Positions 13,782 to 43,849 of a stretch of DNA of 64,000 bases are shown piece after piece. Under the pieces are notes generated by a model, which was not told the origin of the DNA, ran no database searches, and saw only the letters and a program-made list of their open reading frames with translations. Where the stretch lies: the IMG/VR virus record IMGVR_UViG_3300027808_002667, positions 1 to 64,000 of that record. One strand, 5' to 3'. Each line of letters begins with the position of its first letter. Position 1 is the first letter of the stretch. Both the position numbers and the translations under genes were made by a program. The stretch is from a virus (Duplodnaviria > Caudoviricetes).

Positions 13782-14216
13782 TTATTTAGTGCTAGTAGCT
13801 AGCTTTTTCTTACCAATGTTATACTTTGTTTCCATTTTCCACTCATCTTTTTCTTTGTGGGAAATAACTTTGATCTGTGAAAGTGGAGCATAATCCAAGA
13901 AATGTTCTGGATTATTAATCTTAACCAAGCCCCAGTCTACTAGCAGCTTAGCAATAGTATTTCTTCTTTGTAAATCATTGTCAGATAGATCAGCTGTTTT
14001 CCCGTCTAAAGCAAATAGCTCTTTAAAGTGAACAATAAAGTATCTACCTTGTTTATGCAATATATGACAAGATTGATATAGTATTTTATCTTTTCTAGAA
14101 GCGACACCGATTCTAGTTAGAGTTTCTCGTACTTTTAAAAAATCATCCGGTTCAGCCAATATTACTTCTAGGGGATGGTACCCTGGGAAGTTAATGTTTA
14201 TAATGTCAGTAGTCAT
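13782..14216 (-). CDS. regA: Translational repressor RegA
   Basis: DDFLKVRETLTRIGVAS, LYQSCHILHKQGRYFIVHFKELF. Confidence 0.95.
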   Translation of the reverse strand: MTTDIININFPGYHPLEVILAEPDDFLKVRETLTRIGVASRKDKILYQSCHILHKQGRYFIVHFKELFALDGKTADLSDNDLQRRNTIAKLLVDWGLVKINNPEHFLDYAPLSQIKVISHKEKDEWKMETKYNIGKKKLATSTK

Positions 14217-14649
14217 TCTTACCACCTTTTGTTATTCTTTTTCTCAATTCAATAATAATCGAGTCATTGAGTAGTGGTAATATTTGTTTGGCTTTTTCTG
14301 TGCTGTAGCCATAGTATTCTTTTACAACTTCCAAGTCATCGATTTTCTCAGCCTTGATCCATTTATTGAATCTTTTTCGTGGCCTAATAATATTTATAAG
14401 AAAATCAAATTGTAGGATCTTGTCCAAATGTGGTCTAGAATTCATCTCATTTGCAGGAATTACTGTATCATGCCCGTAAGATAGACCCTTATTAATGATA
14501 TAGGGATTATATTGTTTCTCAGACCAATCATCTACGATCAATTTATCTTTGCTATGATGTATAGCATTGATAAAATCAAAGGGTGAAATCGCAGGAGCCT
14601 TATATGGAACTTCTGCTGGTTTTTCGACAGGGGTTCCAAATATACTCAT
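14206..14649 (-). CDS. gp62: Clamp loader small subunit
   Basis: SPFDFINAI, YNPYIINKGLS, ANEMN; synteny. Confidence 0.88.
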   Translation of the reverse strand: MSIFGTPVEKPAEVPYKAPAISPFDFINAIHHSKDKLIVDDWSEKQYNPYIINKGLSYGHDTVIPANEMNSRPHLDKILQFDFLINIIRPRKRFNKWIKAEKIDDLEVVKEYYGYSTEKAKQILPLLNDSIIIELRKRITKGGKNDY

Positions 14650-14933
14650 AATACCATCCTTATGAGTCCAATAGTATCTATGGTAGTGAGCAGGAGATAG
14701 TTGGCCAACATACCAAAAGATTTACGAGTCCAAGCAGCCCAAGCATAGAGACTGCAGCCGATAATCCATATAGGATAGAGAGTAAGCAGGGGCGGAGTGG
14801 GGACAGTAACAGCCATGGTAATCGAACAGCCAATACTAATAGCCCAAGCAATAAGCTCAACGATAAAGCGAAAAGGATGAGAATTAAAATCATCTTTTAT
14901 CCAATCAAATGTGGGTTTCAATAAATCGTTCAT
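14646..14933 (-). CDS. Three-TM membrane protein inserted between gp44 and gp62
   Basis: Hydrophobic helices; ATGA overlaps on both sides. Confidence 0.75.
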   Translation of the reverse strand: MNDLLKPTFDWIKDDFNSHPFRFIVELIAWAISIGCSITMAVTVPTPPLLTLYPIWIIGCSLYAWAAWTRKSFGMLANYLLLTTIDTIGLIRMVL

Positions 14934-15871
14934 TTAAATTCAACCGCTGCCATAATCTCTGTTAAACAAGCTACAAGATTTATTTCTTGATCTGCACAAA
15001 ATGCTGCCTTATATTGATAATCTGCAAGCAATAGAATAAGCTGTGGTACTTGTGTGACATGATCGGTCAATGTATCATATAATTTTCTAAAGATTGTTTG
15101 CGGGTCATTGTCAATATTATTAACAACCCACGTACGCATTTTTTTCCAATCACCATCTTTCAAAGATGAGATTAGTTCTTGCATATTAGATTCGCCGAGG
15201 CTAACAAAAATTCCCTCATCAATTTTACCAGATGCACTATACCTCTGAAGTTCATTTAGAACTCTACGATAATCAGGAAAATGCTTCTCAATTACTTTTG
15301 CTATGACTTTGCCATCCGATTCGATATTCTCAATTGCCATAATTTCCATGACGCGCTTAAAGAATGCAGCTGCAATCTTTGGCTTTTCACTTTTAGGCAA
15401 TTTGAATTCGATGACCGCTGTTCTAGAATGCAGCGGAGGAATGATTCGATTCTTAAAGTTACAAGTAAGAATGAATCTGCAATTTGACGAGAATTCTTCA
15501 ATGAATGCTCGTAATGCAGGTTGTGTAGAATTCGGATTAAGATAATCCGCTTCGTCTAAAATAACAACCTTAGGTTTGCCACTGAATGATACAGTAGAAG
15601 CAAACTGTTTAATCTTTGTACGAAGAACATCAATACCAGATTCTTCTGATCCGTTAATGATAATATAATCTGTTTCTAATTCTTCACACAACGCTCGGGC
15701 AATAGTGGTCTTGCCCATACCTGCGCCACCACACAATAGCATATTTTGTATCTCACCTTTAGACAACATCTCCTGAAAGATATGCTTTTGGTCTGCAGGT
15801 AAAATACAATCTTCTAATGTGAGTGGCCGATACTTCTCAACCCACAAAAATTCATTTTCACGATAATCCAT
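14930..15871 (-). CDS. gp44: Clamp loader large subunit (RFC-like AAA+)
   Basis: LWVEKYRP, GGAGMGKTT, ILDEAD, SRT. Confidence 0.95.
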   Translation of the reverse strand: MDYRENEFLWVEKYRPLTLEDCILPADQKHIFQEMLSKGEIQNMLLCGGAGMGKTTIARALCEELETDYIIINGSEESGIDVLRTKIKQFASTVSFSGKPKVVILDEADYLNPNSTQPALRAFIEEFSSNCRFILTCNFKNRIIPPLHSRTAVIEFKLPKSEKPKIAAAFFKRVMEIMAIENIESDGKVIAKVIEKHFPDYRRVLNELQRYSASGKIDEGIFVSLGESNMQELISSLKDGDWKKMRTWVVNNIDNDPQTIFRKLYDTLTDHVTQVPQLILLLADYQYKAAFCADQEINLVACLTEIMAAVEFK

Positions 15872-15886: not shown

Positions 15887-16237
15887 TTAAATTTTGCGCC
15901 AAATGTTATTTTCTTTGACGTACAGCTTTCCGTCAGGTCCAACCTGCATTTTAGCTTGCACACGTACTTCCGTCCCGGGTTTATAACTAGGACCAGTACC
16001 AATAAGGGTAAACTGGCCATAGGGACTGTAAGGCAGCGGCGGTACCTTCTCACCATATGTTGCATTCAACGCAAGCATAGGATGTTCATCTAATTTGTCA
16101 GATAACTCTTTAGACGCTAGTTCATCGGGTGCAGGCATAAGTCGCTCTTTAGCTTCCTTATAACCTGCAATTCCTACACCAATCAAGCCTATTAGACCTA
16201 GGCCTCTAGCAAATGATCTACGACCTACGGGATTCAT
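15887..16237 (-). CDS. Hypothetical protein with twin-arginine-like N-terminus
   Basis: GRRSFARG followed by hydrophobic LGLIGLIGVGIAG. Confidence 0.65.
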   Translation of the reverse strand: MNPVGRRSFARGLGLIGLIGVGIAGYKEAKERLMPAPDELASKELSDKLDEHPMLALNATYGEKVPPLPYSPYGQFTLIGTGPSYKPGTEVRVQAKMQVGPDGKLYVKENNIWRKI

Positions 16238-16893
16238 TATACTACCGAATCGGGTTCCATTGCAATAAAATATTCAATTGCCTTTGTAGCGTGTTGGAAG
16301 TGAAAAGCCTTCTTCTTAGAAATTGTAACTGTATATGCATCAGGGAAGATTTTAAAGTTCTCAACTGCCATATGGCAATCAAAAGAATGTTCGCTCTTGC
16401 CAATTACTTTCTTGTAGGTATTTGCTGTGTCGTTTTTCTTGTCACCGATAGTTAAAGAAACGTCGTCGCCTTTGCTGGAGATTGTGATTGTAGGTGAGCT
16501 TGTAATAGCAGCCGCCTTCATAATCATATTAACATCTTCAGATGAGAGTTTAAACTGATAGTGATTATCAATCTCAATACTCTTGTCTGGTGCCGCAACA
16601 ATAACTGTTGGACTAGAATAGAAGTACTCAAATTTGCCGTTGTCTTTAGAAATGTTTAGGCTCTTATCGCCAAACTCAACATGTTGATTTTCCATCAATG
16701 TTAGCAACGCCAACAAAGAGTTCAAATCATATACAGCCACTTCTGTGGGGAAATCTTCTACAACTTCAGCTTTAGCAAAAATGTTTTTTGCTGTACTAAT
16801 TGTGGATAAAGTCTTGCCTTTACGGATCATAATATTACTATTAATCGCCGCAAAGTTCTTCAAGATTTGGATTGTTTCATTACTTATTTGCAT
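16237..16893 (-). CDS. gp45: Sliding clamp
   Basis: ILKNFAAINSNI, VYDLNSLL, YFIAME; synteny with gp44. Confidence 0.93.
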   Translation of the reverse strand: MQISNETIQILKNFAAINSNIMIRKGKTLSTISTAKNIFAKAEVVEDFPTEVAVYDLNSLLALLTLMENQHVEFGDKSLNISKDNGKFEYFYSSPTVIVAAPDKSIEIDNHYQFKLSSEDVNMIMKAAAITSSPTITISSKGDDVSLTIGDKKNDTANTYKKVIGKSEHSFDCHMAVENFKIFPDAYTVTISKKKAFHFQHATKAIEYFIAMEPDSVV

Positions 16894-18578: not shown

Positions 18579-19210
18579 ACTAATGCAGGATCATATATTG
18601 AGTTTTCGTGTTCGTCATATGTTTGACCTATAAAGTCTCGGCCAACTTCTTTATAACTTTCACGCATCCAGACGCGTTCTTTAATACCATGTACCATTGC
18701 GTCGTTACTTAAAGAAGGCCAAACCATATCTCGTAAATAGAACTGATCAACTAGATATTGATGTGTAGACCAATATCGTTTAATGCCTTCTACTAGATTG
18801 TCCGACAACCCATCTTTAATTCCCCACATACCTGCAAGTATCGGAAACTCGTAATGGTTAATATGATCTCGTATTACAGACAATTTACTATTTGAATCTA
18901 ACCATTCATCAACAATTTGTCTTTCTCTTAGAGACAATCTAGAATCAGTATCTCTCGACAAAACAATGGTATCTTTTTGCATTGAGAAAAATCTCCAGAA
19001 TGCACCAAATGAACCATTGTCTATCTTAATTGTTTCTACATTAGAAAATTCATCTAATGCTGCAATGTAAATTTTTGGCACAGTCTGGTCATAATAAAAG
19101 TGACAAACCCATTCTGGAAAAAACTTTCTTGCCAATTGGGCATTTCTAATTGCACCAACACAATACTTAGGGTTGTCTCCCCACAAACTAAATGCTATAA
19201 TTTTTTTCAT
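18575..19210 (-). CDS. Putative glycosyltransferase-like protein
   Basis: IAFSLWG, FWRF, SRDTDSR (DxD), ILAGMWG. Confidence 0.55.
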   Translation of the reverse strand: MKKIIAFSLWGDNPKYCVGAIRNAQLARKFFPEWVCHFYYDQTVPKIYIAALDEFSNVETIKIDNGSFGAFWRFFSMQKDTIVLSRDTDSRLSLRERQIVDEWLDSNSKLSVIRDHINHYEFPILAGMWGIKDGLSDNLVEGIKRYWSTHQYLVDQFYLRDMVWPSLSNDAMVHGIKERVWMRESYKEVGRDFIGQTYDEHENSIYDPALV

Positions 19211-19211
19211 T

Positions 19212-20797: not shown

Positions 20798-21753
20798 AGG
20801 CTATCAGTTAATTCTTTCAAAGAGTTATGAATGTTAGCAATATCATCTGAAGACAAAGTACTAATATCACTAATAGGTGTAATAGTATATTTACACTTAA
20901 TGTCTAACCCATTTGACATTGTTTCTGTAGGTGGCTTACCAATGCCCCAGCTTACATTGTAAGACAAGAACTTTTTATTAGGATCCATATAATTTTTATA
21001 TGTTTCGCAGAAAACAAATGGTCCTGAATTCTTACCTACAATCGCATCGCAATGTTCGCTTAGATAAGAAATTTCCTGTAAGTCGCAGTTGTTAACTTCT
21101 CGATCTTCCCATGGCGCTCGTTTATCTTCAACTTCATTATCTACAATAATATCATCAGTAAATAGAACATTGTTTAATGTAGTATCAAATTTTGTAGTGC
21201 AAATAAAGTCAATATTAGGAGATTCTTCTGCAGCAAGATTGATGAAGTCTTGCATATTGTCTGAGAATGATTGTCCAGATTTAGGTGGACCATTACAGAT
21301 TAGAATCTTTTTATTGGTATGGGTCTTTAAAAATTCATCGATACTAGATACATCAAATTTTGTAAAATCAATCTCAGGTAAATATGATTCTTTATCTGTT
21401 CTTAATGCTATTTCTGTATTAAAATGCCCATTGATTGTATCTAAGATTTTATCCCATTGATGCCATAATGAGTTCATGTTAATACCACCATGCTCACAGA
21501 AAATATCCCAGAAACACCCAATCCAAGTATTAATATACAACACACCATCGTCTTGATAAAAAGGAGTTTTTGCATCTAAATTTTCAGGTGCACCAATTAC
21601 AGGAATATTTAAATCCCTAGTTAATTTAGGATGATTAAAATGCATATACTCAAAAGTAAAACCAGGCATTTCATTCTGTAGTTGACGAATAAACTCTTTA
21701 TGTGTTAACAAATCACCTCGGTGATAGTGATTAAAGAAAATAATTTTAGACAT
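20794..21753 (-). CDS. Hypothetical protein (possible GT-B-like fold)
   Basis: HRGDLL N-terminus, IVGKNSGP; island context only. Confidence 0.5.
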   Translation of the reverse strand: MSKIIFFNHYHRGDLLTHKEFIRQLQNEMPGFTFEYMHFNHPKLTRDLNIPVIGAPENLDAKTPFYQDDGVLYINTWIGCFWDIFCEHGGINMNSLWHQWDKILDTINGHFNTEIALRTDKESYLPEIDFTKFDVSSIDEFLKTHTNKKILICNGPPKSGQSFSDNMQDFINLAAEESPNIDFICTTKFDTTLNNVLFTDDIIVDNEVEDKRAPWEDREVNNCDLQEISYLSEHCDAIVGKNSGPFVFCETYKNYMDPNKKFLSYNVSWGIGKPPTETMSNGLDIKCKYTITPISDISTLSSDDIANIHNSLKELTDSL

Positions 21754-22097
21754 TACTTAACACCTTTATATAATTTTACAGAATCTTCTACTAAAGATCT
21801 GTTTGTTCTGATTGCATTGTCAACCATTAAATTAACTGCTTGCACATAACGAGGTCTTTTAACTTTAAAGCAAATGTCGCATTTGCGTTTTAAGTCTGCA
21901 ATTTCTTCATCTGATTTTGCAGCTTGAATCGCATCTTCCAACATCCACATACGAATATGAATGATTGCGAGTTTTTCAATAACTTCGCCTAGGTTATCTG
22001 TTTCAATATATTCAGAATCAGGAAGATCTCCCTTTGCCAATACATCATGAACAGTTTGTTTAATTATTGCTTCTATGCTATTACCGAAATCTATCAT
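21753..22097 (-). CDS. Small helical hypothetical protein
   Basis: NLGEVIEKLAIIHIRMWMLED helix; coupled to neighbours. Confidence 0.6.
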   Translation of the reverse strand: MIDFGNSIEAIIKQTVHDVLAKGDLPDSEYIETDNLGEVIEKLAIIHIRMWMLEDAIQAAKSDEEIADLKRKCDICFKVKRPRYVQAVNLMVDNAIRTNRSLVEDSVKLYKGVK

Positions 22098-23250
22098 CAA
22101 TTTTCTCCACAACTTGTTTTAAGAACGCCATATCTTTTTCAGTTACAAAATGATTGTTACCAATATATACACCTTGAGCATTAATCAAATCCGCATTTGT
22201 TTTGTCTTTAGATGTTTCAATTTTATAACCATTTAAAAATGGCTGTGCCAATAGATTGCCAGCAACAACTGGTCTATATTCAATACCATTTTCAGCAAAT
22301 GTTTCTTTCATAGCCATCATAATCTCTTTAGACTTGCAGATGAAAGGCAAACAAAAACTACTATTCGTTGCTGAATTTTTAATATTATAAAATAAATGTT
22401 CGTATTTGTCTATAATATCAGTAAATAATTTATGATTTCTGTTCCTAATTTCAATCATTTTATCTAAACGCTTTAACTGCGATGAACCTAGAACAGCACA
22501 AATCTCATGATTTCTAAAATTGTATCCATCAGTAACAAACAAGAATTGTTTATCAATGTCTGGATAAAGCGCAGCATAATCGTCGAATCTTGTAGAATAT
22601 CTTGCCATACCGTGACTGCGTTTTAATTGCATTAAATCATATAGGTCGGTATTGTTTGTCGAAACCATGCCACCCTCAACTGTGGACATATGATGTCCGA
22701 AATAAAAGCTAAAGGTTGCACCTAAATCATTTGCTCCGCGCTTAACACCGTTGGGATCAGTGCAACCATGTGATTCACAAACGTCATCTATAATAATTGC
22801 TTTAGGAAAAATCCTAGACAACGATTCGTTGTCTGCAGAGAACCCTAATAGATGAGTAACAAAGATCATTTTAATGTCATGTTTCTTGGAAATCTTTATT
22901 GCGTCTACAAGATCAAAACTAAAATTATCAATATTAATATCGCAGAATACAGGTTCAAGCCCTAGTTGCATAATTGGTGCAACATTAGTTACCCAAGTAC
23001 AGGCTGGCAACAATACCTTATCGCCATTCTTCAATCCATACAATTCTTTAACTGCCGCTACCAATAAGAAGTTTGCTGTGCTACCAGAAGAAACATACAA
23101 TGAATGTTTAGCACCAAGCCATTCACTCCATTCTTGCTCAAACTTTTTAACCTTTTCACCGAAGGTAAATTTTTTAGCTGTTAGCGCAAAATGCGCCATT
23201 TTTAGTCTGTCACCAAAGGTGATTGTTTCACCCATTAAAGGCCATTTCAT
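22081..23250 (-). CDS. PLP/PMP-dependent DegT-family enzyme with His at the catalytic Lys position: ColD-like GDP-4-keto-6-deoxymannose 3-dehydratase
   Basis: VSSGSTAN, DDVCESHG, SFYFGHHMSTVEGG, GYNFR; 389 aa; next to gmd and fcl. Confidence 0.75.
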   Translation of the reverse strand: MKWPLMGETITFGDRLKMAHFALTAKKFTFGEKVKKFEQEWSEWLGAKHSLYVSSGSTANFLLVAAVKELYGLKNGDKVLLPACTWVTNVAPIMQLGLEPVFCDINIDNFSFDLVDAIKISKKHDIKMIFVTHLLGFSADNESLSRIFPKAIIIDDVCESHGCTDPNGVKRGANDLGATFSFYFGHHMSTVEGGMVSTNNTDLYDLMQLKRSHGMARYSTRFDDYAALYPDIDKQFLFVTDGYNFRNHEICAVLGSSQLKRLDKMIEIRNRNHKLFTDIIDKYEHLFYNIKNSATNSSFCLPFICKSKEIMMAMKETFAENGIEYRPVVAGNLLAQPFLNGYKIETSKDKTNADLINAQGVYIGNNHFVTEKDMAFLKQVVEKIDDRFR

Positions 23251-24182
23251 ACTAACCCCTTTTCTTTTTTGTACCAATCAATAGTTTGTTTTAAGCCCAC
23301 ATCAAAAGTAACTTTAGCTTTCCAGCCTAGTTCTTTTAGCTTAGTGTTATCCATTTTGCGTCTTGGTGTGCCGTTTGGTTTGTCTTTGTTCCAAACAATT
23401 TTACCGGAAAAGCCCATTTCTTTTTTGAGCTTATTAACGAGATCTTTAATTGTAAGTTCTTCGTCACTACCAACATTAACAAATTCTGGTTTATCATAAT
23501 TTTGCATTAACCAGAAACAAGCATCTGCTAGATCATCTACATATAAAAATTCTCTAGTGGGTGTACCATCACCCCAGCACTCTATGCTGTTATCCCCTGT
23601 CTTCATAGCATTATGCATCTTAGTAATGATACCAGGAATTACGTGACCATGTTCTGGAATAAAGTTATCATTAGGTCCATATAAATTGGCAGGCATACAA
23701 CTAATAGCATTAAAGCCATATTGGCGTCTGTAATATTCGCACATACGTAAACCTGTAATTTTTGCTAGTGCATAACCTTCATTGGTTGGTTCAAGTGGCG
23801 CTGTTAATAAGTATTCTTCTTTAATTGGCTGAGGTGTTACCTTAGGGTAAATGCAAGCAGAACCTAAGAACAACAATTTCTGACAACCATTTCTATATGC
23901 AGAATCAATTACATTAGTTTGAATCTGCAAATTGTCATAGATGAATTCGCCAGGATTTGTCCAGTTCCAGTTAATGCCACCAACCTTAGCTGCTGCTAAG
24001 AAAACAAAGTCTGGTCGCTCTGTACTAAAGAAGTTTTTAACTGATCGTTGGTCTCTTAAATCTAATTCGCTTTTTGATCTCAGAATTAAATTTGTATAAC
24101 CTTCTTCTTTTAATTTTCTTACAATTGCTGATCCAACTAATCCTTTATGACCCGCAACAAATATTTTGCTATTCTTTTCCAT
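23247..24182 (-). CDS. fcl: GDP-L-fucose synthase / ColC-like epimerase-reductase
   Basis: AGHKGLVGSA, AAAKVGGI, LGSACIYP, YALAK, NLYGPNDNF, DGTPTREF. Confidence 0.92.
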   Translation of the reverse strand: MEKNSKIFVAGHKGLVGSAIVRKLKEEGYTNLILRSKSELDLRDQRSVKNFFSTERPDFVFLAAAKVGGINWNWTNPGEFIYDNLQIQTNVIDSAYRNGCQKLLFLGSACIYPKVTPQPIKEEYLLTAPLEPTNEGYALAKITGLRMCEYYRRQYGFNAISCMPANLYGPNDNFIPEHGHVIPGIITKMHNAMKTGDNSIECWGDGTPTREFLYVDDLADACFWLMQNYDKPEFVNVGSDEELTIKDLVNKLKKEMGFSGKIVWNKDKPNGTPRRKMDNTKLKELGWKAKVTFDVGLKQTIDWYKKEKGLV

Positions 24183-24189
24183 GATATCC

Positions 24190-25203
24190 TTAATTAAAAT
24201 TAATACACATATCTTCTACAAGGGCATTAAAAGAATGCTTAGGAGTCCAACCAAGTACACTCTTAGCCTTAGATGAATCACCCAATAATGTTTCTACCTC
24301 TGCAGGGCGGAAATATTTTTCATCTACACGAACAATAATTTTTCCTGTGTGTTCGTTAATACCGACTTCATTTAGGCCTTCACCTTCCCATCGAATTTTT
24401 AATGCAAAATATGGTGCACATCTTTCAACAAATTCTTTAACCGAATATTGCTCGCCTGTAGAAATAACAAAATCGTCAGGGGCGTCTTGTTGTAGCATCA
24501 ACCACATTGCTTCAACATAATCTTTAGCGTGACCCCAATCTCGTTTAGCATTTAAATTACCTAAATACAAACACTCTTGACGACCTGAACCAATTGATTC
24601 TAAGCCATTTACAATTTTCTTAGTTACAAAATTATGTCCACGACGAGGAGATTCGTGATTAAATAGAATGCCAGAACAAGCAAACATATTATATGATTCT
24701 CGATAGTTCTTAACGATCCAGTATGCGTAGAGCTTAGCTACACCATACGGCGATCTAGGATAAAATGGAGTTGTTTCTTTTTGTGGTATTTCTTGTACCA
24801 GACCATATAACTCAGATGTAGATGCCTGATAAATCTTACATGTCTTTTCCATGTTAAGTAATCTAACAGCTTCAAGAATACGTAATGTACCTAAGCCATC
24901 AACCATTGCAGTATACTCGGGGGTTTCAAAAGAAACCTTAACGTGACTCTGTGCTGCAAGATTATAAATTTCACATGGATTGTGTTTCTTCAATACGTTC
25001 ATAATAGACAAAGAGTCTGTTACATCACCATAGTGAAGATGCAAATTTGGATTGCTGTAGATATGGTCAATGCGACCTGTATTGATTGACGAGCTGCGAC
25101 GGATAATACCGTGAACTTCGTAACCTTTAGACAATAAAAGTTCTGTTAGATAAGAACCGTCTTGTCCTGTGATGCCCGTGATTAGAGCTACCTTTTTTTC
25201 CAT
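24190..25203 (-). CDS. gmd: GDP-mannose 4,6-dehydratase
   Basis: [43 protein letters not shown]. Confidence 0.96.
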
Positions 25204-25204
25204 A

Positions 25205-26041
25205 CTATAATCTCCTGAATAATATATCTTCGTTATACTGTAAAACCTTGGCAATGGTATTCTCTGAGTAATTCCACTCACCTACTCTTATATATTTATC
25301 ACCATTGATATCCATGCTATACACATCAAGATGCTCTTTTAACATACTTGGATTGAGTGCATTAGGTATCGATAAATTGGTGCAATATAATTCCTTAATA
25401 TTCTTTGAACATATTGCCGCAGCTAAAGCAAATGTCCCTATTCCCGATGTTGCTATTGCCTTTGCTCTTAGTAATAATGTTAAACTTTGTTGTACATCCA
25501 ACACATTAACATTGACACCATTATTTTTTAATACTTGTGTTATTGGACTTTTATCATCTTCAGTAATAAAAATTACTTTCTGATTAAATCTTTTATATAA
25601 TTCTAAATAAAAAGATAAAGGATTTTGTACATAAGATGGATGCGGTGCATGTGAATACACGTCTCCGCTTCGTATATGTGCAACACAAACATCATCTCCT
25701 ATAGGCTGATCTAACTCATCATGATTAACTTTTAAATTAGGCAGAATATACTTTTCACATATTTCTTTTCTTTTAAAATTTAAATCAGTAATATCTGCAT
25801 CGAAATCTTTATCTGGGCCTTCAAAAAAATAAAACCAATTGTGAGATGATTCACTTATTTTAAATTCATTGTCCCCAAATGTCAATTCAATTGCATTAAT
25901 AAATGGATGATCTGGCGATGTAAATTTTACGTTATTCTTTTCGCAGTAATATATTCCATTAGATATTTGTTGAATGTTATTACCAAGACGCCCAAACCAC
26001 CTTGGGATAAATGTGTCGTGTACTATTTCATTAGTGTGCAT
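25205..26041 (-). CDS. GT11 family alpha-1,2-fucosyl/colitosyltransferase-like protein
   Basis: GRLGNNIQQ and AHIRSGD (HxRxGD) motifs; start uncertain (no SD). Confidence 0.75.
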
Positions 26042-34253: not shown

Positions 34254-34943
34254 TTATTTTCTATCACCAAACAGTTGTAATAGATTAATAAACAAATTGA
34301 TAAAGTCCATATATAAAGTCAATGCTCCACGTACCTCTGCGCTATCGCTAGTTTCTATACTGAGTTCTTCTCGAATCTTCTGTGTGTCGTATGCTGTCAA
34401 TCCGAGGAAGATAATAATTGCCAATGCACTAATAACCATTTGCATTACAGTACTACCGATAAAGATATTAACGATACTAGCAATAATGATAGCAATCAAT
34501 CCAACAAACATAAATTTACCAAGACTATCTAGACTTTGTTTAGTAAAATAACCATATCCACTCATAACACCAAACAGCACTGCCGCACCCATAAAAGCAC
34601 TAACAATACTTCCCATGGTGAACACAGCAAAGATCATTGCAAAGCTTAATCCCATCAATGACGCAAAGCCATGTAGGCAAAGTTGCGCAACACTTTTACT
34701 CGGATTTTTACCTAACACATAGCTAACACCAAAGATTGCTGCAAGTGGGGCAAAGATCACAATCCACTTTAATACACCCGTAAAAAAGAATTGTAGTAAC
34801 TCTGGACTAGTGCCTACAAAGTAACTGACAAACATTGATACAATAACAGCAAGACTCATATGCCCGTAGACACGACCCATTGCTGAGTTAATTTCGCTTG
34901 CAGAGCGATATGATATTCCGCCTGTGTAATTTGTTCCAAACAT
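34254..34943 (-). CDS. Bax inhibitor-1/YccA family membrane protein
   Basis: About 7 TMs, TAYDTQKI, ALTLYMDFINLF. Confidence 0.9.
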   Translation of the reverse strand: MFGTNYTGGISYRSASEINSAMGRVYGHMSLAVIVSMFVSYFVGTSPELLQFFFTGVLKWIVIFAPLAAIFGVSYVLGKNPSKSVAQLCLHGFASLMGLSFAMIFAVFTMGSIVSAFMGAAVLFGVMSGYGYFTKQSLDSLGKFMFVGLIAIIIASIVNIFIGSTVMQMVISALAIIIFLGLTAYDTQKIREELSIETSDSAEVRGALTLYMDFINLFINLLQLFGDRK

Positions 34944-35545: not shown

Positions 35546-36022
35546 TTATTCGAACTCGTTGTCTTCTCTGTGCCCAACTCTCATTGCCATGTTTGCATCT
35601 GTTTCTCGTACTTCAACCTTGCTGCACCAGATTCGTTCTGCTTCGGTTTTGCCGTACATTGGGAGGAAGATAGTATTAATATACTCATAAAGAAAATCAG
35701 AAATCCCCTCACAACCTGTTTTCTCCACCTCTGTAATTTTTGCTAATTTTAATCTGCCTAATTCAAGTAAATGTTCCCGCATAGGATCATCCTGTGCGAC
35801 TAATAGAGTATGGTCAAACCAATCCTCTAATTTTTCTTTTAATGGTTTAAGTCCACCGAAATCCATACACCAATTACGAGCATCCAGTGTGTCACATTCA
35901 AATTCAAAATGAAATGATAGTGCATATCCATGAACTAGATTACAATGACTGTCAGCTCTCCATTGTCTGTACGCTACGGGACCTATTTGTTTATATGTTT
36001 TTGTTGAGATATATTTTGCCAT
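35546..36022 (-). CDS. queD: 6-carboxy-5,6,7,8-tetrahydropterin synthase
   Basis: HCNLVHGY, MDFGGLK, FDHTLL, VRETDAN. Confidence 0.88.
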   Translation of the reverse strand: MAKYISTKTYKQIGPVAYRQWRADSHCNLVHGYALSFHFEFECDTLDARNWCMDFGGLKPLKEKLEDWFDHTLLVAQDDPMREHLLELGRLKLAKITEVEKTGCEGISDFLYEYINTIFLPMYGKTEAERIWCSKVEVRETDANMAMRVGHREDNEFE

Positions 36023-36062: not shown

Positions 36063-37094
36063 TTAGAGAGGGGTGAATGCCGGAGACCTCTTTGTCATTT
36101 CCTGAAAAGCCCTAGAATCATACCAATCGAATAAATCTTCGATAATTTTATCTAAGTTACATTCTGGCTTCCAAGAAGTTTCAGATTGTAATTTTTCAGA
36201 ATTTGCAATTAATATTGCAGGATCACCATCGCGGCGAGGTGCAACATTGAAAACAATACCGTCGCCAATTCTTTCCGCATCTAATAAAAAGTTTTCTGTT
36301 TTAACAAATACTTCAAGATTCGAATGTCCTTTGACTGATCCTATATTATATATGCCTTTGAGATTATTCTCAATAGCTAAGATGTGTGCTTTGGCAATAT
36401 CCGTGACATGAATATAATCTCTGACACAAGTTCTATCCTTTGTCGGATAATCTATACCATACATTGTAAATGCTTCGTTAGACATTGCTGCTTCAAAAAT
36501 TTTAGCAAAAATATGAGTAGCATTTGGTTCTTGACCGTGTATGCCACCTTCTACTGCACCGCAAGCATTGAAATATCTAAATGACACATACTCTAAACCA
36601 TATGCCTTATTGTGCCAATTAAGCATCATCTCAGTCATTAGTTTAGATTCACCATATGGTGATATCGGATTTGTATCTGATTTTTCGAATAGCATATGAC
36701 TTTTTTCAGGGTCACCATAAACCGAAGCGCTGCTACTAAAAATGAATTTTGTTTTAGGGGAATATTTGTTAATGTGTTCTAAATACTTTGCAGTTTTAGC
36801 AACATTGTTATCATAATATTCTATTGGGTTAGTCATACTTGGACCAACTAAACTAGTGCCAGCACAATGAATAATTGCATCTGGCATATTATTCATTACG
36901 CTTTTTAATGAATCAGCATCAACAAAATCACATTGAATGAATTCATCATAGTATGTTTTTAAATGTGGACTAACTCGTCTGTCAATACCAACAACTCTAT
37001 AGCCTTGATTTTTTAGTTCAATGCAAATAGCGCCACCGATATAACCGGCGGCACCTGTAACTATAACTGTTTTAATATTTTGCTGCTGGGACAT
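36063..37094 (-). CDS. galE: UDP-glucose 4-epimerase (SDR)
   Basis: TGAAGYIG, SSSASVYG, YGESK, RYFNACGA, RDYIHVTD, RRDGDP. Confidence 0.88.
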   Translation of the reverse strand: MSQQQNIKTVIVTGAAGYIGGAICIELKNQGYRVVGIDRRVSPHLKTYYDEFIQCDFVDADSLKSVMNNMPDAIIHCAGTSLVGPSMTNPIEYYDNNVAKTAKYLEHINKYSPKTKFIFSSSASVYGDPEKSHMLFEKSDTNPISPYGESKLMTEMMLNWHNKAYGLEYVSFRYFNACGAVEGGIHGQEPNATHIFAKIFEAAMSNEAFTMYGIDYPTKDRTCVRDYIHVTDIAKAHILAIENNLKGIYNIGSVKGHSNLEVFVKTENFLLDAERIGDGIVFNVAPRRDGDPAILIANSEKLQSETSWKPECNLDKIIEDLFDWYDSRAFQEMTKRSPAFTPL

Positions 37095-38244
37095 GATCTC
37101 TATAATCCTTACCACCTCGCCACCAATGTGATCCTTCGGCATTAAACATAATATCTATACAACGATCAATAGTATTAGATGTCCAAGTAGCTAATTTGCC
37201 TAGATTGGCTCGCTCTTGAAACAACAAACTATTCAATTTAAATATGGCATCATCTTGTGACCATGGGATGTAAAGACATTCACGATCATTAGCAAATGTT
37301 TCTGGGAATGATCTATACGCAGGATACAAACAATTTGTACCTAGTGCATCTGCTTCTGATGCTGTATTACTTACCCAATCTTGTAATGCACAATTAAATA
37401 ATACTCGAGAATCACCCAACAACTCATAGTACTCATTCTTTTTAAGATTCTCATATATTTTAAAATTGTGAGTCTTTTCCAATGCTCGCGCGCGATCCAA
37501 ATACTTTTGGTTGTTGCTACGTAATGGTCCACCTGATAAAACGGCAAACTCTACTGCAGGATTAAGTGTATGATAACGCTCAATTAGATCCATAAAGAAA
37601 TCAGGTTGTTTTTCTTGATCAAATCTTGCCGCAAACACTACACGAAGTTTTCGCTCATTAAATGGAATCAACGACTCAACACGGCTGCGAACTTCATTTT
37701 TGTCAAACGCCAAACCAGAGATATTAAAGATTGGTGCTTCCCAGCCCGCAATTTTCATATGGGCAACCATCTCTTCGTTAGATGCAAGTACACCTGTAAC
37801 GAATTGGTCTGTCATTTTCTCATATAGACCCATCCACTTCTGCATGTCCCATACGTGTACAAAATCATCTGGGTCAATAGATTGTGCAAGACAACGAACA
37901 AATATTCGAGGTTGATATTCATAATTTACTTGATCCATGATGTAAGGCAATGCCTCAATACCCGGAGTAAACATATCTTCAAAAAAGATTGTATCTTCGT
38001 ATGTAATTTCACCAGCTTTCATCTTCTTAATAAGATTAGCCATTTGTGTCAACGAATAATAACTACGACCATGTGCATCAAGTACTTGCCCAGTTACAAT
38101 TGCTTTAGAGTCATCTAAAATATCACCATGAATTACTTCATAATCAATACCACGACGTTTAAATGCTGCCTCGCTCCAATGTTGAAGCTGTAAGGTATAA
38201 CGACCTTCATACGGCTCCAGACCCATATAATATAATTTTCCCAT
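37072..38244 (-). CDS. GT-B glycosyltransferase (GT4-like C-terminal domain)
   Basis: FAARFDQEKQPDFF, VLFNCALQDWVSNTASEA, LYPAYRSFPE. Confidence 0.7.
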   Translation of the reverse strand: MGKLYYMGLEPYEGRYTLQLQHWSEAAFKRRGIDYEVIHGDILDDSKAIVTGQVLDAHGRSYYSLTQMANLIKKMKAGEITYEDTIFFEDMFTPGIEALPYIMDQVNYEYQPRIFVRCLAQSIDPDDFVHVWDMQKWMGLYEKMTDQFVTGVLASNEEMVAHMKIAGWEAPIFNISGLAFDKNEVRSRVESLIPFNERKLRVVFAARFDQEKQPDFFMDLIERYHTLNPAVEFAVLSGGPLRSNNQKYLDRARALEKTHNFKIYENLKKNEYYELLGDSRVLFNCALQDWVSNTASEADALGTNCLYPAYRSFPETFANDRECLYIPWSQDDAIFKLNSLLFQERANLGKLATWTSNTIDRCIDIMFNAEGSHWWRGGKDYRDHVPAAKY

Positions 38245-38246
38245 TA

Positions 38247-38645
38247 TCAATCCCTAGTAAAATACATTCTGCAACCGTTTTCGCCATCTTCTGATACTTC
38301 AATTACATAATCTCGATCAGGCCACTGTGCAATTAATTTCTCATGCAAATCTTTAGCAATCATCTCACAAGACTTATGATTCAATTTTAATGTGTCTTCA
38401 TTATACCAGCGTTCAATAGTACGCTTTGCTTGTATAAATTCAACATCTCTATCATCATGAAATACTTCCATCTCAACACGGAAATGAAAAATATGTCTAT
38501 GTAGATCAGCTAAGAATGAAACATCCAACCAATGTTCTTCCGGTTTACCAAAACGCTTTGTTGCTAATTTTGGATCCGTTGCCGCTGCTGGGTAACGATG
38601 AATACCTTCCTTCTGAAAGGTAACAAAAATAAAACTCTTGTTCAT
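38247..38645 (-). CDS. QueD-paralogous T-fold protein, DpdL-like
   Basis: LADLHRHIF matches LxxxHRHxF; SCEMIA; EVSEDGENG. Confidence 0.65.
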   Translation of the reverse strand: MNKSFIFVTFQKEGIHRYPAAATDPKLATKRFGKPEEHWLDVSFLADLHRHIFHFRVEMEVFHDDRDVEFIQAKRTIERWYNEDTLKLNHKSCEMIAKDLHEKLIAQWPDRDYVIEVSEDGENGCRMYFTRD

Positions 38646-39931
38646 GCAAATAAGTCCTCAAGTGTTGAAGGGGCGACTTCGCTAACAGGCTCTGAATCCA
38701 TAAACCTGCCAACATTCTTTTCCCAATAAAGAAAATCATCAGTATTTTTTACATCGAATAATGTCGAATATTCGTTTTCACAATTTTTATCTCTGCAGAA
38801 TCTTAAAAATTCTTCTTTAGAATTCATAAGTGTACTAACATCCAATGTAAAGTTATGTACATTAGTTAAAATAAATGCAAGTCTGGCTCTCATAACATCT
38901 ACAAATTTACCACCATTCTCAAGATATTCACCTACAGAAATATTCATTAATTTATGATATTGTTCTGCAGTATATTCTGTACCACATACCGCATTAATTT
39001 CCGCGACAACTGTTCTATAGATATTTGAAAATGGTCTTCCCATTTTTACAGATGAGCCACCATAGTCACCAGGATTCTTTTTCTTGCTATGTGAGAAATA
39101 AAACAATCCATTATCTAAAGACATAGAATGAGTAGTTGAATCATATGAAATATCAATGCCATCATATAAGCCAGTTTGACTAAATAACAAATATGGCAAG
39201 ATACGCTTTAACGCACCAACGCCCAATACGTGTAAATGAAATGGTCTTTCAAATGGCACAGCATTAACAAAGAACGCTCGCTTAACATCTTCAAGTGGCC
39301 CCATACCCAAGGCAGCTGATCCCATAGCTACACCGCCAATACGATGATGTAAATCTTTTGGAATTTCATCAAGCATTGCCTCGCCCCACAATTTGTAGGT
39401 ATCTTGGCCTGACCCCTGAATAATAACAAAAGGTCTGCAAGAACTTTTCATATCATCAAATCTTTGAATTTGTTCTAATACATTTTTGCCAGTTTGCCTA
39501 GCATAGCTCTCAAAATTTTCCATATCTACATATCTACGCTTAGTATCAATTTTAGATGATACTCCAGAAGCAGATGTAGACTTAACAGGAATCTCATCAA
39601 ACGCCATTCCGATATCTGCGTATGTTGCTTGATTCTCAAAAACCTTATTACGAGTTTCAGATGTATTAGGCAGACCTCTAGTAATAATCTGCAACCCACC
39701 AGAGTCAGCATGAATGTTTTTAATTACTGGTCTAAATTTTTGTAATTTTGCACCAAAGTTCTTTTCTGTAAATCCATTATACAATAAAGAAAATTGATGG
39801 TTGTTTTTATTGTGAACAGTTTTGGAAATCATATCTTTAATCATTTCCAATGTCTCTGGGTCATTACATTGTTCTGCACCTAACCTCAGATACGCCGGTC
39901 CTGAAATAACATATTCTAATTGTCTGCTCAT
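38642..39931 (-). CDS. dpdA: tRNA-guanine transglycosylase-fold DNA base-exchange enzyme, DpdA-like
   Basis: ADSGGLQ, AFDEIP, IIQG, GGVAMG, HLHVLGVG, SYDSTTH match TGT motifs; flanked by folE/queE/queD; no Zn-binding Cys cluster. Confidence 0.8.
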   Translation of the reverse strand: MSRQLEYVISGPAYLRLGAEQCNDPETLEMIKDMISKTVHNKNNHQFSLLYNGFTEKNFGAKLQKFRPVIKNIHADSGGLQIITRGLPNTSETRNKVFENQATYADIGMAFDEIPVKSTSASGVSSKIDTKRRYVDMENFESYARQTGKNVLEQIQRFDDMKSSCRPFVIIQGSGQDTYKLWGEAMLDEIPKDLHHRIGGVAMGSAALGMGPLEDVKRAFFVNAVPFERPFHLHVLGVGALKRILPYLLFSQTGLYDGIDISYDSTTHSMSLDNGLFYFSHSKKKNPGDYGGSSVKMGRPFSNIYRTVVAEINAVCGTEYTAEQYHKLMNISVGEYLENGGKFVDVMRARLAFILTNVHNFTLDVSTLMNSKEEFLRFCRDKNCENEYSTLFDVKNTDDFLYWEKNVGRFMDSEPVSEVAPSTLEDLFA

Positions 39932-40830
39932 AAAAATAAACTTTCTAATGAAGACTTTTGTATGTCTCCAGCTTTTTCTGTCAAATTGACTGTAATCTGT
40001 TTTAGCTTAGGGTTCTTTTGCTTGAACATTCTCATCCAAGTTCCCTTTGCCACTGTATCTTGTTTAGGCAAATTCCATATCTCTGATATGAACTTTAATC
40101 CCGATGCTGTTCTTTCCCATCTTTGTTCTGCAGTCATTCCAGTTGACCAAGTAGACTTTTCGGCAGTTGCTTGTTCTTCTTTAAAAATAATATTGTTGCA
40201 GATAAAAACACCCAAACCATTTTGGATAAACTCTATACCAAAATTTTGATCTTCACATGGAATAAGGGTACCATCAGAATTAACGAACTTCTCATCAAAA
40301 TATATTTCTTTATTGTGATGTTTCTTAATATTCTTAACAATCAGAATACTTGTCTTTGTCATAAATGTTGGTCTGAATCTCCATCTAATTATATCACCTT
40401 CAGCGTTTTCTGTCAAGTCTTTTGTGAAAGGCTGATTGGCAGGATTGACAGGCAAGAACATATCTACGTCTGCAAGATTCTCAAATGGAATATTTCTAAA
40501 TGTTTTTACGAATGTATCATTTGCCCCATACTTTTGACCAGTATAAAGGTATGTGTCATTGTCAGCAAAAATGGCATAGTCCTCATCCGAATTATAAAAT
40601 TCTTTCAAAAGGATATTTCTTGCATCACCGGGAGTTAGTACTTTACCTTGATGTTTAATATATTGAACATCTGGTTCATATTGTTCTTCTTTATAATTTT
40701 GCGCAAACACTACAGGTTGAAGATCATTTTTCTTGACCCAATCCAATTGCCGTTTGTGTATTTCGGCACGTCTTGCATTTGTACTGTCAGGTCCGAACCA
40801 TGATATAATATAGCATTTCTCAAACTTCAT
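39928..40830 (-). CDS. GT-A fold glycosyltransferase resembling phage DNA glycosyltransferases
   Basis: ARNILL...YAIFADND (DxD), CEDQNF; C-terminal SSLESLFL. Confidence 0.6.
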   Translation of the reverse strand: MKFEKCYIISWFGPDSTNARRAEIHKRQLDWVKKNDLQPVVFAQNYKEEQYEPDVQYIKHQGKVLTPGDARNILLKEFYNSDEDYAIFADNDTYLYTGQKYGANDTFVKTFRNIPFENLADVDMFLPVNPANQPFTKDLTENAEGDIIRWRFRPTFMTKTSILIVKNIKKHHNKEIYFDEKFVNSDGTLIPCEDQNFGIEFIQNGLGVFICNNIIFKEEQATAEKSTWSTGMTAEQRWERTASGLKFISEIWNLPKQDTVAKGTWMRMFKQKNPKLKQITVNLTEKAGDIQKSSLESLFL

Positions 40831-41340
40831 TTACTCACCTAGCATTTTAATTAAGTGTTTTGTTTGATGCATTGCATCGTCAAGCGCATTATGGTAAACG
40901 CCTTCTCGTTCGTCAGCTGGGATCCAATTGAACAAAGCCTTTACTGTACGATAACATCTGTCATCCCAGCATTTCCAAGGTGGTTCTCTGTTCGTAATAA
41001 AATATGCATTTGATAAAATTGTGTTATCAAAGACAGCACCGTTTCCCCAAACAGGCAAACTCTTAGGCCCAAACCATTCCTCAAAATCATCTAATGCTTG
41101 ATTCAAAGGAATGTTATTGCGAGTAAGTTCTCGCAAAGCTTCTTTATTTTGCTCTGACCACCATTTAATAGTTTCTTTTGAGACATGCATACCTACATCT
41201 TTGCAGGTTTTAAGATCAATGGTACAATAGAAAGTATCTAAAATTTCTTTACCTTCAAATTTTACTGCACCAATTGAACATATAGCGGCATTTGATCTTG
41301 TTGACATTGTTTCCAAGTCAACCATTATATTAACTGTCAT
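40831..41340 (-). CDS. DEDDh 3'-5' exonuclease
   Basis: [21 protein letters not shown]. Confidence 0.88.
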
Positions 41341-42017
41341 TTACATCCTTGTCTTGCAATCTGGTAAAATTCGTTTCTAACTTCTGGGTGATTTTTAAAT
41401 CCACCACCTAGACGAACTGTTACTGTAGAACTACCTGTATCTTCAACGCCTCTAGATTTTACGCAATAGTGTTGTGCATCAATTAATACGGCAACATCTT
41501 CGGTATCAAGAATATATTGTAGTGTGTGAAAAATTTGTTCTGTTAATCGTTCTTGAATCTGTGGTCGTTTGCTAAAATATTCAACAATACGATTAATTTT
41601 AGATAGACCAAGAACTTTGTCTTTTGGCACATATGCAACAGTTGCTAAACCGTCAATAACGACAAAGTGATGCTCACAATTAGATTGTACATTAACATTG
41701 CGTTCAACAACCATTTCATTATATTTCATTTTGTTGTCAACAGTTGTGCATTTAGGGAATGCATCATAATCGAGACCCCAAAAGATTTCGTTAACATACA
41801 TTTTGGCAACACGCTTAGGTGTTTCCATCAAACTATCGTCATTTAGATCGAGTCCCAACACTTGCATAATATATGAAAAGCTTTTTTCAATTTCTGCAAT
41901 TTTATCTTTGCGATCCATTGATACTTTAAATGTCGGTGTTTCCACTCCCATTTTAACTAAGTGTTCGTGAACTTGTTGTCCCAATACTGGGTCTGTTTTT
42001 GTCTTGTTATATGACAT
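41337..42017 (-). CDS. folE: GTP cyclohydrolase I
   Basis: [40 protein letters not shown]. Confidence 0.96.
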
Positions 42018-42085: not shown

Positions 42086-42934
42086 TTAAGTACCCCAAGC
42101 ATTTTTGAATAATGGGATTTGTAATCTGTCGGAATATCTCCAACCTTTTTTCATTGCCAATTCTGCAACACCACGATTGTTCAATGAATACATTTCTTCT
42201 GTGCCACCACAAGGCATAATATAAACGACGCCGCCAAAACCAAATTTGCGATATTCATTTACTGCTTGTTCTGCTTCTTCGGCATCTTCTTTAGTTGCAA
42301 CTACAAATTTAAGGTATGTATTACCTAACAATTGATATTGTTGAATAACTTCTGGTCTAATTGCATCCTCCCATTTTTCACCGCTGATTGATAATTTAGG
42401 GGATACTGAAAATGTTATGTTGCCATAGTCTCGACCAAATCTTGTCCACTCCTGAAATAGATATTCATCGAACTCATCAGTTATAAGTTGCGTGCCATTA
42501 GTTTCAAAAGTAAGTTCTTTTAGACTTTGCATCTTTGGATGTTCTAAAAGATCTGGATAAGCTTTTTGCCAACCCAATAAAGGTTCACCGCCAGTAATTA
42601 CCAGATGTTCGTCACGCCATTCCTTGTACGGTAGCGTATCCACAATAGCATCGGCAATCGAATCAGTAGAAAGAACGGGAGACAAATGCTTAAAACGAGG
42701 ATCCCAAGAAGCATAACTATCACAACCCGTAGACACCAAAGGTAACGAACCATATTCTTTATACTTAGAAGGGTCAACATTGTTTGCTTCATTACTAAGT
42801 TCTCCCTTAGGCATCCCAAAGCCAGCACATTTAAAGTTACAACCAAACGTTCTCAAAAACACTGAAGGCACGCCCATATAGCGACCTTCACCCTGTATGC
42901 TATAAAATAATTCTGCAATCTTAATTTTGCTCAT
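42086..42934 (-). CDS. queE: 7-carboxy-7-deazaguanine synthase (radical SAM)
   Basis: ELFYSIQGEG, FLRTFGCNFKC...GCDSY, ITGGEPLL, ETNGT, SVSPK. Confidence 0.88.
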   Translation of the reverse strand: MSKIKIAELFYSIQGEGRYMGVPSVFLRTFGCNFKCAGFGMPKGELSNEANNVDPSKYKEYGSLPLVSTGCDSYASWDPRFKHLSPVLSTDSIADAIVDTLPYKEWRDEHLVITGGEPLLGWQKAYPDLLEHPKMQSLKELTFETNGTQLITDEFDEYLFQEWTRFGRDYGNITFSVSPKLSISGEKWEDAIRPEVIQQYQLLGNTYLKFVVATKEDAEEAEQAVNEYRKFGFGGVVYIMPCGGTEEMYSLNNRGVAELAMKKGWRYSDRLQIPLFKNAWGT

Positions 42935-43211
42935 ATTCACTTCCAAAAATAGTAGACCATTTTTTTAATTTGGCAATTTTATTATCAGCGGCAATACTTA
43001 CTTGTTCGCTATCTACAAGATCAAATGTAATACATAAGTCAATCATGGCTTGTAGATCACCCAACTCTTCGGCTAGATGTTCTCTGTTTGTTTTTGGTTT
43101 GCCGGGTTTAAAATTGTCAATACCAAAGCGGTCGCATTTGCTAACTGCTTGTATAACTTCAGCACATTCTTCTTGTAGAATGTTCAATATTTCTTTGGTT
43201 TTTGTAATCAT
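42921..43211 (-). CDS. MazG-like nucleotide pyrophosphohydrolase
   Basis: LQEECAEVIQAVSK...LAEELGDL. Confidence 0.75.
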   Translation of the reverse strand: MITKTKEILNILQEECAEVIQAVSKCDRFGIDNFKPGKPKTNREHLAEELGDLQAMIDLCITFDLVDSEQVSIAADNKIAKLKKWSTIFGSEYEQN

Positions 43212-43228: not shown

Positions 43229-43849
43229 TTAGTCAGTAATGTCAATTGTGGGATTGTCCTTTTCAGCAGCAGCTTTCTTTTTGCGAGTTTTTGTCTCAGA
43301 TGCCGTTTCTCGTTTTTCCGGATCTATTGTGTCCAATTGCTTTTTCAAATAATCAATCAAATGACGGCCTGCTTCTGAATCTTCTGCATTTTGAATAATA
43401 GAATCAATGTCCATATTCTCCATGAGTTTATATTTCGTTGCCTGTTGTTTCTTTTCTTTTTGAATTCTGCGAATAAAGGCAAAGTAAATAATTTGAGTAT
43501 AATAGGCAAAGGGATTAGATGATTTTGTGGGATCAAATTTTGCAACAGCAGTTAGGCAATTTTCAATGCCGTCTGAAACCATATCATCTCTAAATGTGTA
43601 ATTGATAAAATTAGATTTATAAGATAAGTGTGTTGCAATTTTAATAAAACATTCACCTATGTATCGAGGTACTCGAGTCGGTTCCTCTCCTACAGCTTTG
43701 GCTTTGTCTAATGATTCTTTATATTCTATAAGAGCAGCAAGAAACTGTTTGTTGTTTACATAATGAGCAGGGGCCTTAATGGAGGGTTCTTCTAGTTCCT
43801 CGATTAATTCTAATATCTCGCTCTCCGGTGTCGTCGTTGTTTTCGTCAT
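43229..43849 (-). CDS. gp55: Late-transcription sigma factor
   Basis: HYVNNKQF, YIGECFIKIA, DMVSDGIENC, NPFAYYTQIIYFAFIRRIQKEKKQ. Confidence 0.93.
   Translation of the reverse strand: MTKTTTTPESEILELIEELEEPSIKAPAHYVNNKQFLAALIEYKESLDKAKAVGEEPTRVPRYIGECFIKIATHLSYKSNFINYTFRDDMVSDGIENCLTAVAKFDPTKSSNPFAYYTQIIYFAFIRRIQKEKKQQATKYKLMENMDIDSIIQNAEDSEAGRHLIDYLKKQLDTIDPEKRETASETKTRKKKAAAEKDNPTIDITD

Follow-up and report, generated by a model that had tools for sequence, protein, structure and literature searches.

Polymerase-type C-terminal tails on a DpdA-family transglycosylase and a neighbouring glycosyltransferase of a T4-like phage suggest docking on the sliding clamp

Introduction

Why would two predicted DNA-modification enzymes of a phage end in the same short peptide as its DNA polymerase? 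The question is raised by IMG/VR virus record IMGVR_UViG_3300027808_002667 (Duplodnaviria; Caudoviricetes), an 80.3-kb fragment that is ~45% complete according to CheckV. We analysed its first 64 kb (64,000 nucleotides, G+C ~35%), a stretch referred to here as the window. The source phage is T4-like. Among the genes of the window are those for a gp43-type DNA polymerase, a gp45-type sliding clamp and a 7-deazaguanine pathway cluster, in which a DpdA-family transglycosylase (DpdA) is encoded directly beside a glycosyltransferase (GT) of GT-A fold (Table 1). A preliminary description, made from the sequence of the window, had noted that the last residues of DpdA and of the GT resemble those of the polymerase, and proposed that both enzymes are tethered to the clamp and act on newly replicated DNA. 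Here we follow this proposal through homologues, relatives and structure predictions, and find it likely that the tails of DpdA and GT-A dock into gp45, so that the clamp would hold both enzymes on phage DNA.

Several elements of this proposal are already known. Post-replicative base exchange is regarded as the route by which phage DNA receives 7-deazaguanine modifications, at levels from <0.1% to 100% of G. DNA is an established substrate of DpdA, as the DpdA2 enzymes of Vibrio phages nt-1 and VH7D insert preQ0 or preQ1 into DNA, which was shown experimentally (PMC10516641). Clamp clients with C-terminal peptides of this type are also known, as is a gp45-binding DNA GT: the T4 alpha-GT co-purifies with gp45 (PMC13216743; earlier report by Sommer et al. 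2004). A literature search for DpdA or 7-deazaguanine modification together with a sliding clamp found no paper linking them, in agreement with the statement of the preliminary description that the mechanism was not known to be described for DpdA. A search for DpdL returned only Cui et al. (PMC10516641).

Results

Three proteins share a rare C-terminal tail

The C-termini read TLEGLFG in gp43, TLEDLFA in DpdA and SLESLFL in GT-A, precisely as first reported, and have the common form [ST]LExLF plus one residue. Both DpdA and GT-A therefore carry, at the extreme C-terminus, the L-[DE]-x-(L/F)-(F/Y) peptide that marks gp45 clients. No other open reading frame (ORF) with such an end was identified among the 602 ORFs of at least 30 amino acids (aa) in the whole 80.3-kb record, which extends the original claim that no other protein of the window has it. 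A looser pattern, [STGN]L[DE]x[LF][FY], is confined in the ~100 likely genes to these three C-termini and has no internal occurrence. From composition, 0.0018 such ends are expected per 100 genes. In the complete 190-kb genome of a relative (G002, 260 genes) the motif is again present only on the polymerase, on DpdA and on the GT upstream of dpdA, always at the extreme end.

The tail codons differ (ACT TTA GAA GGA.. in gp43, ACA CTT GAG GAC.. in dpdA, TCA TTA GAA AGT.. in the GT-A gene), and thus the three tails are not a repeated piece of DNA. The interval 38642-39951, under which the tails were first described, takes in dpdA together with the seven codons of the GT-A tail (39931-39951).

The tail is conserved among DpdA homologues

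An alignment of homologue C-termini had been suggested as a check, and the tail withstood it. The best 120 DpdA homologues were taken from a search of 5.8 billion proteins. A scan of IMG/VR with the DpdA alignment, which put the number of contigs with this DpdA at ~340, gave mostly close relatives, and a distant homologue (P0113) then served as query. A tail of the form [ST]L[DE]x[LFM]F, with or without one further residue, is present in 118 of these 120 proteins, down to 40% identity. The remaining two are fragments or, in one case, have a different end. In an alignment of 51 sequences L424 never varies and F428 is conserved in >90%, at the level of active-site residues, and the residues of the linker right before the tail vary freely among homologues. 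The tail is also found on DpdA of the cultured T4-like phages ACP17, Ps15, BUDD and BUCT-ZZ01.

The DpdA tail follows the tail of the polymerase

DpdA and polymerase tails were paired by genome in 13 lineages and compared with permuted pairings, without regard to shared descent. Tails from the same genome give 39 letter matches (25.1 ± 3.6 when permuted; P = 6e-5, ignoring shared ancestry), and 10 of 13 lineages are in agreement at the L/F position (P = 1.5e-4, likewise ignoring shared ancestry). An L before the final F of the polymerase is matched by L at that place in DpdA (the clade of the window's phage, the G012 clade, ACP17, Ps15 and BUDD); where the polymerase ends in FF, DpdA has FF or FW (BUCT-ZZ01, G007, G021 and G022). 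Odd forms are shared too: in G007 both proteins stop exactly at FF, and in G018 both tails are shortened. On the polymerase tree, LF-type tails fall into two or more separate clades, and relatives with 70-97% identity retain the polymerase tail.

As control we used a gp26-like baseplate protein whose end, GL[DEQ]xFF, resembles the tail; it stays FF whatever the type of the polymerase. In all T4-like phages examined, this baseplate-hub protein (230-260 aa) has one residue after GL[DEQ]xFF, and the end is either a structural feature or an extra clamp-like end.

The gp26-like protein bears on the possibility that the tail plays no part in targeting, and either serves as a signal for protein stability, folding or degradation or has arisen by chance convergence. 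It demonstrates that such ends exist outside replication proteins, and hydrophobic C-termini can serve as protease tags. We nevertheless regard this explanation as highly improbable. The chance expectation is 0.002 per 100 genes, the motif is invariant to 40% identity beside a variable linker, and it co-varies with the polymerase tail, which the gp26-like end does not. Moreover, beyond the polymerase the motif is restricted to enzymes of the DNA-modification cluster.

Other observations concern similar ends and the polymerase gene. ArcS2 of nt-1, the enzyme that converts dPreQ0 to dG+ on DNA, is encoded at L003:4498-5178 (VPFG_00169) and ends in ..SLANFF, matching the FF-type polymerase tail of nt-1. 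An extension of the tail to ArcS2 in general is weakened by the homologues, of which no more than two or three out of six end in a similar way, and it is a hint at most. In BUCT-ZZ01, ..NSLEKFFDD.. lies ~30 residues from the C-terminus of a 219-aa protein (8799-9458, plus strand) and may be an internal clamp-type motif of the sort seen in T4 gp55. The polymerase match in one relative, at G028:C1:37586-40336 (loci L239 and L245), is in pieces (1-490, 482-509 and 508-829) with an internal TAA stop, which suggests an insertion (mobile element or intein/intron-like) or a broken gene.

The glycosyltransferase body was exchanged and the tail kept

No match to the GT-A protein was found in Pfam and PHROG scans. 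Its AlphaFold (AF2) model has a mean predicted local distance difference test (pLDDT) score of 90.1, and Foldseek matches it to TarS, TarP and PcManGT (probability 1.0), which gives it a GT-A fold. The DxD motif, D90-N-D92, is invariant among the GT-A sequences. Tail-like ends are kept in homologues of at least 47% identity. Homologues below ~45% identity, some of them in other contexts and one beside QueE, are tail-less, and thus the tail is not a family-wide feature of GT-A. Two genes upstream of one tail-less homologue, L250:1907-3214 (plus strand) encodes a 435-aa protein ending in ..NNLFEVV, a further candidate tail-bearing enzyme.

Among 2935 ORFs of 40 close IMG/VR relatives, only DpdA and the product of the gene directly upstream have the tail. 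This upstream gene encodes GT-A in a clade of 99% identity and an unrelated GT-B protein of 454-457 aa, identified by weak Glycos_transf_1 matches, in a clade of 74-87% identity. The GT-B orthologue of BUCT-ZZ01 (42% identity) likewise ends in the tail. In a DNA alignment across the swap (A4; window 39900-40050 against L036, L044 and L027) a single conserved block spans the tail codons and the start of dpdA, and the junction between GT-A and GT-B sits just upstream of the tail codons. The catalytic body of the GT was exchanged and the tail kept, which argues for selection on the tail. The exchange was also considered as proof that the tail was acquired independently; this was rejected, because the tail codons belong to the conserved DNA block.

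A cognate clamp is encoded, and modelling tentatively places the DpdA tail on it

Homology of the window's gp45 to the clamps of RB69 and T4 (1b77/1b8h, 1czd, 6drt; E-value 1e-17) extends along the whole protein, and the phage encodes the gp44/62 loader as well, so that the receptor expected for gp45 clients is present together with its loader. The premise of the preliminary description, that C-terminal peptides of T4 proteins bind gp45, agrees with published work. T4 gp43 and gp55 end in SLDFLF/Y. Clamp binding by gp43 is through its C-terminus in T4 and RB69, and the dissociation constant of gp45 and the LDFLF loop of T4 ligase is ~11 uM (PMC6212786). Structures of gp45 clamps with bound peptides have been solved (PDB 1b8h and 6drt).

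Modelling of the tail with the phage's own clamp, also proposed at the outset, was carried out with DpdA and gave a result in the same direction, at low strength. Complex prediction of gp45 with DpdA residues 385-429 placed the tail on gp45 with a score of 0.52 (best of three controls, 0.00), which is weak support. Of 80 solved complexes, 58 pass the mark applied, as do 2 of 110 mismatched pairs; among those that pass, only 7 of the 80 solved complexes, and both mismatches, score ≤0.60. At least 86% of contacts are shared between runs, with a partner pLDDT of at least 42. Since like complexes have been solved (1b8h, 6drt), the pass may reflect memory.

The tail might instead bind another common partner, such as a replisome or scaffold protein, or mediate assembly of polymerase, DpdA and GT with one another. 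The gp55 of this phage could be cited in favour, as it has no T4-type tail and the rules for clamp clients may differ from those of T4. We consider this very unlikely. In T4 and RB69 the polymerase binds the clamp through its C-terminus (PMC6212786), the present motif belongs to that type, and the clamp is a full-length homologue; the prediction, weak as it is, also put the tail on gp45 and left the controls at 0.00.

The C-terminus of gp55 is of interest in its own right. The protein is without the SLDFLY-type clamp epitope of T4 gp55, and in this lineage late transcription may be coupled to the clamp in another way.

DpdA and the pathway for its base

A Pfam scan of the DpdA-like protein gave no match, nor did a sequence search of the PDB. 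The protein shares 35% identity with the validated DpdA2 of nt-1 (VPFG_00171; residues 5-274, E-value 6e-45) and 32% identity over its full length with DpdA of ACP17. The AF2 model, built on 51 homologues, has a pLDDT of 90.7, and Foldseek matches it to tRNA-guanine transglycosylase (TGT) of Z. mobilis and mouse (probability 1.0, TM-score 0.5-0.6), with the TIM barrel of TGT. D76-S-G-G79 and Y263-D-S-T266 are invariant in the alignment of 51 sequences; we take their aspartates to be the catalytic aspartates of TGT. The canonical zinc site of TGT (Cys/His cluster) is not conserved in the same alignment, where C165 alone is invariant, and in this the protein differs from tRNA TGT. By homology, fold, motifs and linkage to FolE, QueD and QueE, the 429-aa protein belongs to the DpdA family, and base exchange on DNA is its predicted activity.

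Genes for FolE, QueD, a QueE-like enzyme and a DpdL-like protein were identified in the cluster. The QueE-like gene is syntenic with the annotated QueE of BUCT-ZZ01, ACP17 and Ps15. DpdL is recognised by LxxxHRHxF in place of the CxxxHGH of QueD-like T-fold proteins (PMC10516641), and LADLHRHIF in the product of 38247-38645 fits this signature. No QueC was found in the 80.3-kb fragment (G000) or in two complete relatives. Thus, the base is predicted to be 7-deazaguanine or a derivative, rather than preQ0. Expression of ACP17 dpdA and dpdL in E. coli formed no 2′-deoxy-7-deazaguanine (dDG) (PMC10516641).

Points that weigh against clamp tethering

A number of results count against a clamp-docking role of the tail, or limit it. 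The end of DpdA in phage pf16 is degenerate (..TLDLMCA), and DpdA2 of nt-1 is tail-less. The latter puts preQ0 into DNA in E. coli, where no phage clamp is present (PMC10516641); because it works there, at a low level, the tail is dispensable for catalysis. In T4, promoter-swap work led to the conclusion that the level of modification by alpha-GT depends mainly on something other than gp45 binding (PMC13216743), and for this reason the effect of a tether may be modest here. The complex prediction, the sole structural test, lends weak support. The co-variation comes down to about two independent L/F switches and two idiosyncratic cases, without correction for ancestry, and the GT swap is a case of tail retention, not of a second independent origin. 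Finally, plain 7-deazaguanine offers no obvious attachment point for a sugar.

With these points in view, the interpretation in the preliminary description is supported. For tethering of both enzymes we have the conserved tail, its retention through the GT swap, its tracking of the polymerase tail and the presence of gp45; binding of the tails to this clamp, an increase in modification as a result of binding, and coupling to the fork are inferred. A further claim was that the tail makes DNA, and not tRNA, the substrate of both enzymes. DNA holds for the DpdA family, as seen with DpdA2 of nt-1 and VH7D (PMC10516641), and the tail is not needed for that conclusion. For the GT the tail is the sole indication, from which an acceptor in DNA may be proposed.

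A different timing has to be weighed as well. The tails may bind gp45 while the enzymes use leftover or nick-loaded clamps, as in T4 late transcription, and scan the finished duplex after replication. T4 gp45 does serve gp55 and gp33 away from the polymerase, and crowding at the fork is plausible, as a single gp45 ring took just one full-length T4 ligase (PMC6212786). Sequence separates neither this scenario nor action at the fork from the other, and the two differ in timing alone. We judge the post-replicative alternative to be rather unlikely.

Genomic setting and other features

The phage is known from metagenomes only: a megablast search with the dpdA/GT locus against cultured phages gave no match. 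UvsX, a gp41-type helicase and regA are also encoded in the window, and its structural genes lie past 46 kb. Features discussed in the text are listed in Table 1.

Table 1. Position of the features under discussion. Positions refer to the window unless a genome is named.
Feature	Position	Strand	Assignment and remarks
gp43 family B DNA polymerase, 830 aa	6191..8683	-	PF00136, PF03104; phrog_262; tail TLEGLFG at 6194-6214
gp62 clamp-loader subunit	14206..14649	-	phrog_225, E-value 5e-40
gp44 clamp-loader subunit	14930..15871	-	phrog_168, E-value 3e-119
gp45 sliding clamp, 218 aa, proposed tail receptor	16237..16893	-	phrog_223
QueD (PTPS family)	35546..36022	-	PF01242, E-value 4e-15
NAD-dependent nucleotide-sugar epimerase, GalE-like	36063..37142	-	PF01370, E-value 1e-56
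Second glycosyltransferase, GT-B (Glycos_transf_1), 392 aa	37072..38250	-	PF00534, E-value 5e-6; without clamp-type tail, ends ..VPAAKY
DpdL-like T-fold protein, predicted 7-carboxy-7-deazaguanine decarboxylase	38247..38645	-	phrog_17812; LADLHRHIF
DpdA-family DNA guanine transglycosylase, 429 aa	38642..39931	-	phrog_10773; closest to DpdA2/ACP17-type DpdA of T4-like phages
DpdA tail TLEDLFA, proposed gp45-binding peptide	38645..38665	-	Short helix at residues 424-428 in model
GT-A fold glycosyltransferase, 300 aa	39928..40830	-	Stop codon overlaps dpdA start
GT-A tail SLESLFL	39931..39951	-	Flexible end in model, residues 286-300 pLDDT <50
Rv2179c-type 3'-5' exonuclease	40831-41340	-	Between FolE and GT-A, inside the deazaguanine cluster
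FolE, GTP cyclohydrolase I	41337..42017	-	PF01227, E-value 5e-61
QueE-like radical SAM enzyme	42086..42946	-	Weak PF04055, PF13353; 52% identity to QueE-position gene in L251
gp55 late sigma factor	43229-43849	-	C-terminus is a lysine-rich stretch, then ..NPTIDITD
gp26-like baseplate-hub protein	G002:69852-70544; ACP17 88633-89394; BUDD 3737-4519; pf16 101344-102057; BUCT-ZZ01 7844-8554

Other genes were noted in passing. Adjoining the clamp gene is a candidate island of ~9 genes of sugar-nucleotide/glycosyltransferase size (17165-25281, minus strand), separate from the GTs of the deazaguanine cluster; distinct from these GTs too is a UDP-glucose dehydrogenase-like gene (phrog_9148) at 119-922 (minus strand). 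Directly downstream of the modification cluster, 34254-34943 (minus strand) encodes a Bax inhibitor-1 family membrane protein (PF01027, E-value 2e-53), unusual cargo for a phage. Two tandem small proteins (108 and 116 aa; 11416-12062, plus strand) both end in ..CGCGxSF[RS]V and look like products of duplicated candidate Fe-S scaffold genes (IscA/HesB-like). At the end of the BUCT-ZZ01 deazaguanine cluster stands a 174-aa gene.

Discussion

The mechanism that we propose would begin with the gp44/62 loader placing the trimeric gp45 on phage DNA. Each tail, carried on a variable and flexible linker, would insert into the hydrophobic pocket of one gp45 subunit, and the clamp would keep DpdA and the GT on duplex phage DNA, either at the fork or behind it. 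There, DpdA would swap guanine for a 7-deazaguanine base supplied by FolE, QueD, QueE and DpdL, predicted to be 7-deazaguanine itself, and the GT would work on the same DNA. Tethering of this kind would give processivity and limit the reaction to replicating phage DNA.

The closest parallels are the gp45 clients of T4 and RB69 (gp43, gp55, gp33 and the ligase loop), which share with the proteins described here the [ST]L[DE]x(L/F)F peptide at the C-terminus on a flexible linker, the trimeric clamp and the gp44/62 loader. They differ in that the carriers here are a transglycosylase and GTs instead of replication or transcription factors, with binding predicted, and in the residues at the fourth position of the peptide (E/G/S-L here, F-L in T4). 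The T4 alpha-GT is likewise a clamp-associated, DNA-hypermodifying GT of a T4-like phage, proposed to work alongside replication (PMC13216743). Unlike the enzymes considered here, it has no polymerase-type C-terminal tail, and it glucosylates 5-hydroxymethylcytosine.

Among DpdA enzymes, DpdA2 of nt-1 and VH7D is alike in its catalytic domain, in its T4-like phage background and in the FolE/QueD/QueE cluster (PMC10516641, PMC6884629). The nt-1 enzyme has a different C-terminal region and modifies <0.1% of G, and its cluster includes QueC and ArcS2; the phage described here has no QueC, and instead has DpdL, two GTs and an epimerase. ACP17 is more similar, with FolE, QueD, QueE and DpdL in a cluster without QueC, a cluster GT and a DpdA whose tail agrees with that of the polymerase. 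Its dDG pathway is a prediction, and the clamp was not discussed by the authors (PMC10516641).

Outside phages, a comparable arrangement exists in DNMT1, a DNA methyltransferase that is tethered to PCNA and brought to new DNA by a clamp-binding peptide. This system is eukaryotic, the peptide is an N-terminal PIP box and the reaction is methylation.

A clamp-docking tail would provide a concrete and cheaply testable mechanism for the targeting and processivity of DpdA. It also marks the neighbouring GTs as candidate DNA enzymes, and thus points to a sugar-bearing base. More broadly, and as a tentative extension that we hold to be possible rather than probable, a tail of the polymerase type may act as a transferable address label, put by T4-like phages on any enzyme meant for replicating DNA. 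If so, a clamp-riding DpdA would be processive, which would explain how tailed DpdAs could attain a far higher substitution than the tail-less DpdA2 of nt-1 and VH7D (<0.1% of G). The same could explain the failure of ACP17 dpdA and dpdL in E. coli, where the other phage proteins are lacking. The tailed GTs would then build a glycosylated DNA base of 7-deazaguanine type that is chemically undescribed. In phages that encode their own clamp, a C-terminus that ends like that of the phage's own polymerase may serve as a search key for further DNA-modifying enzymes.

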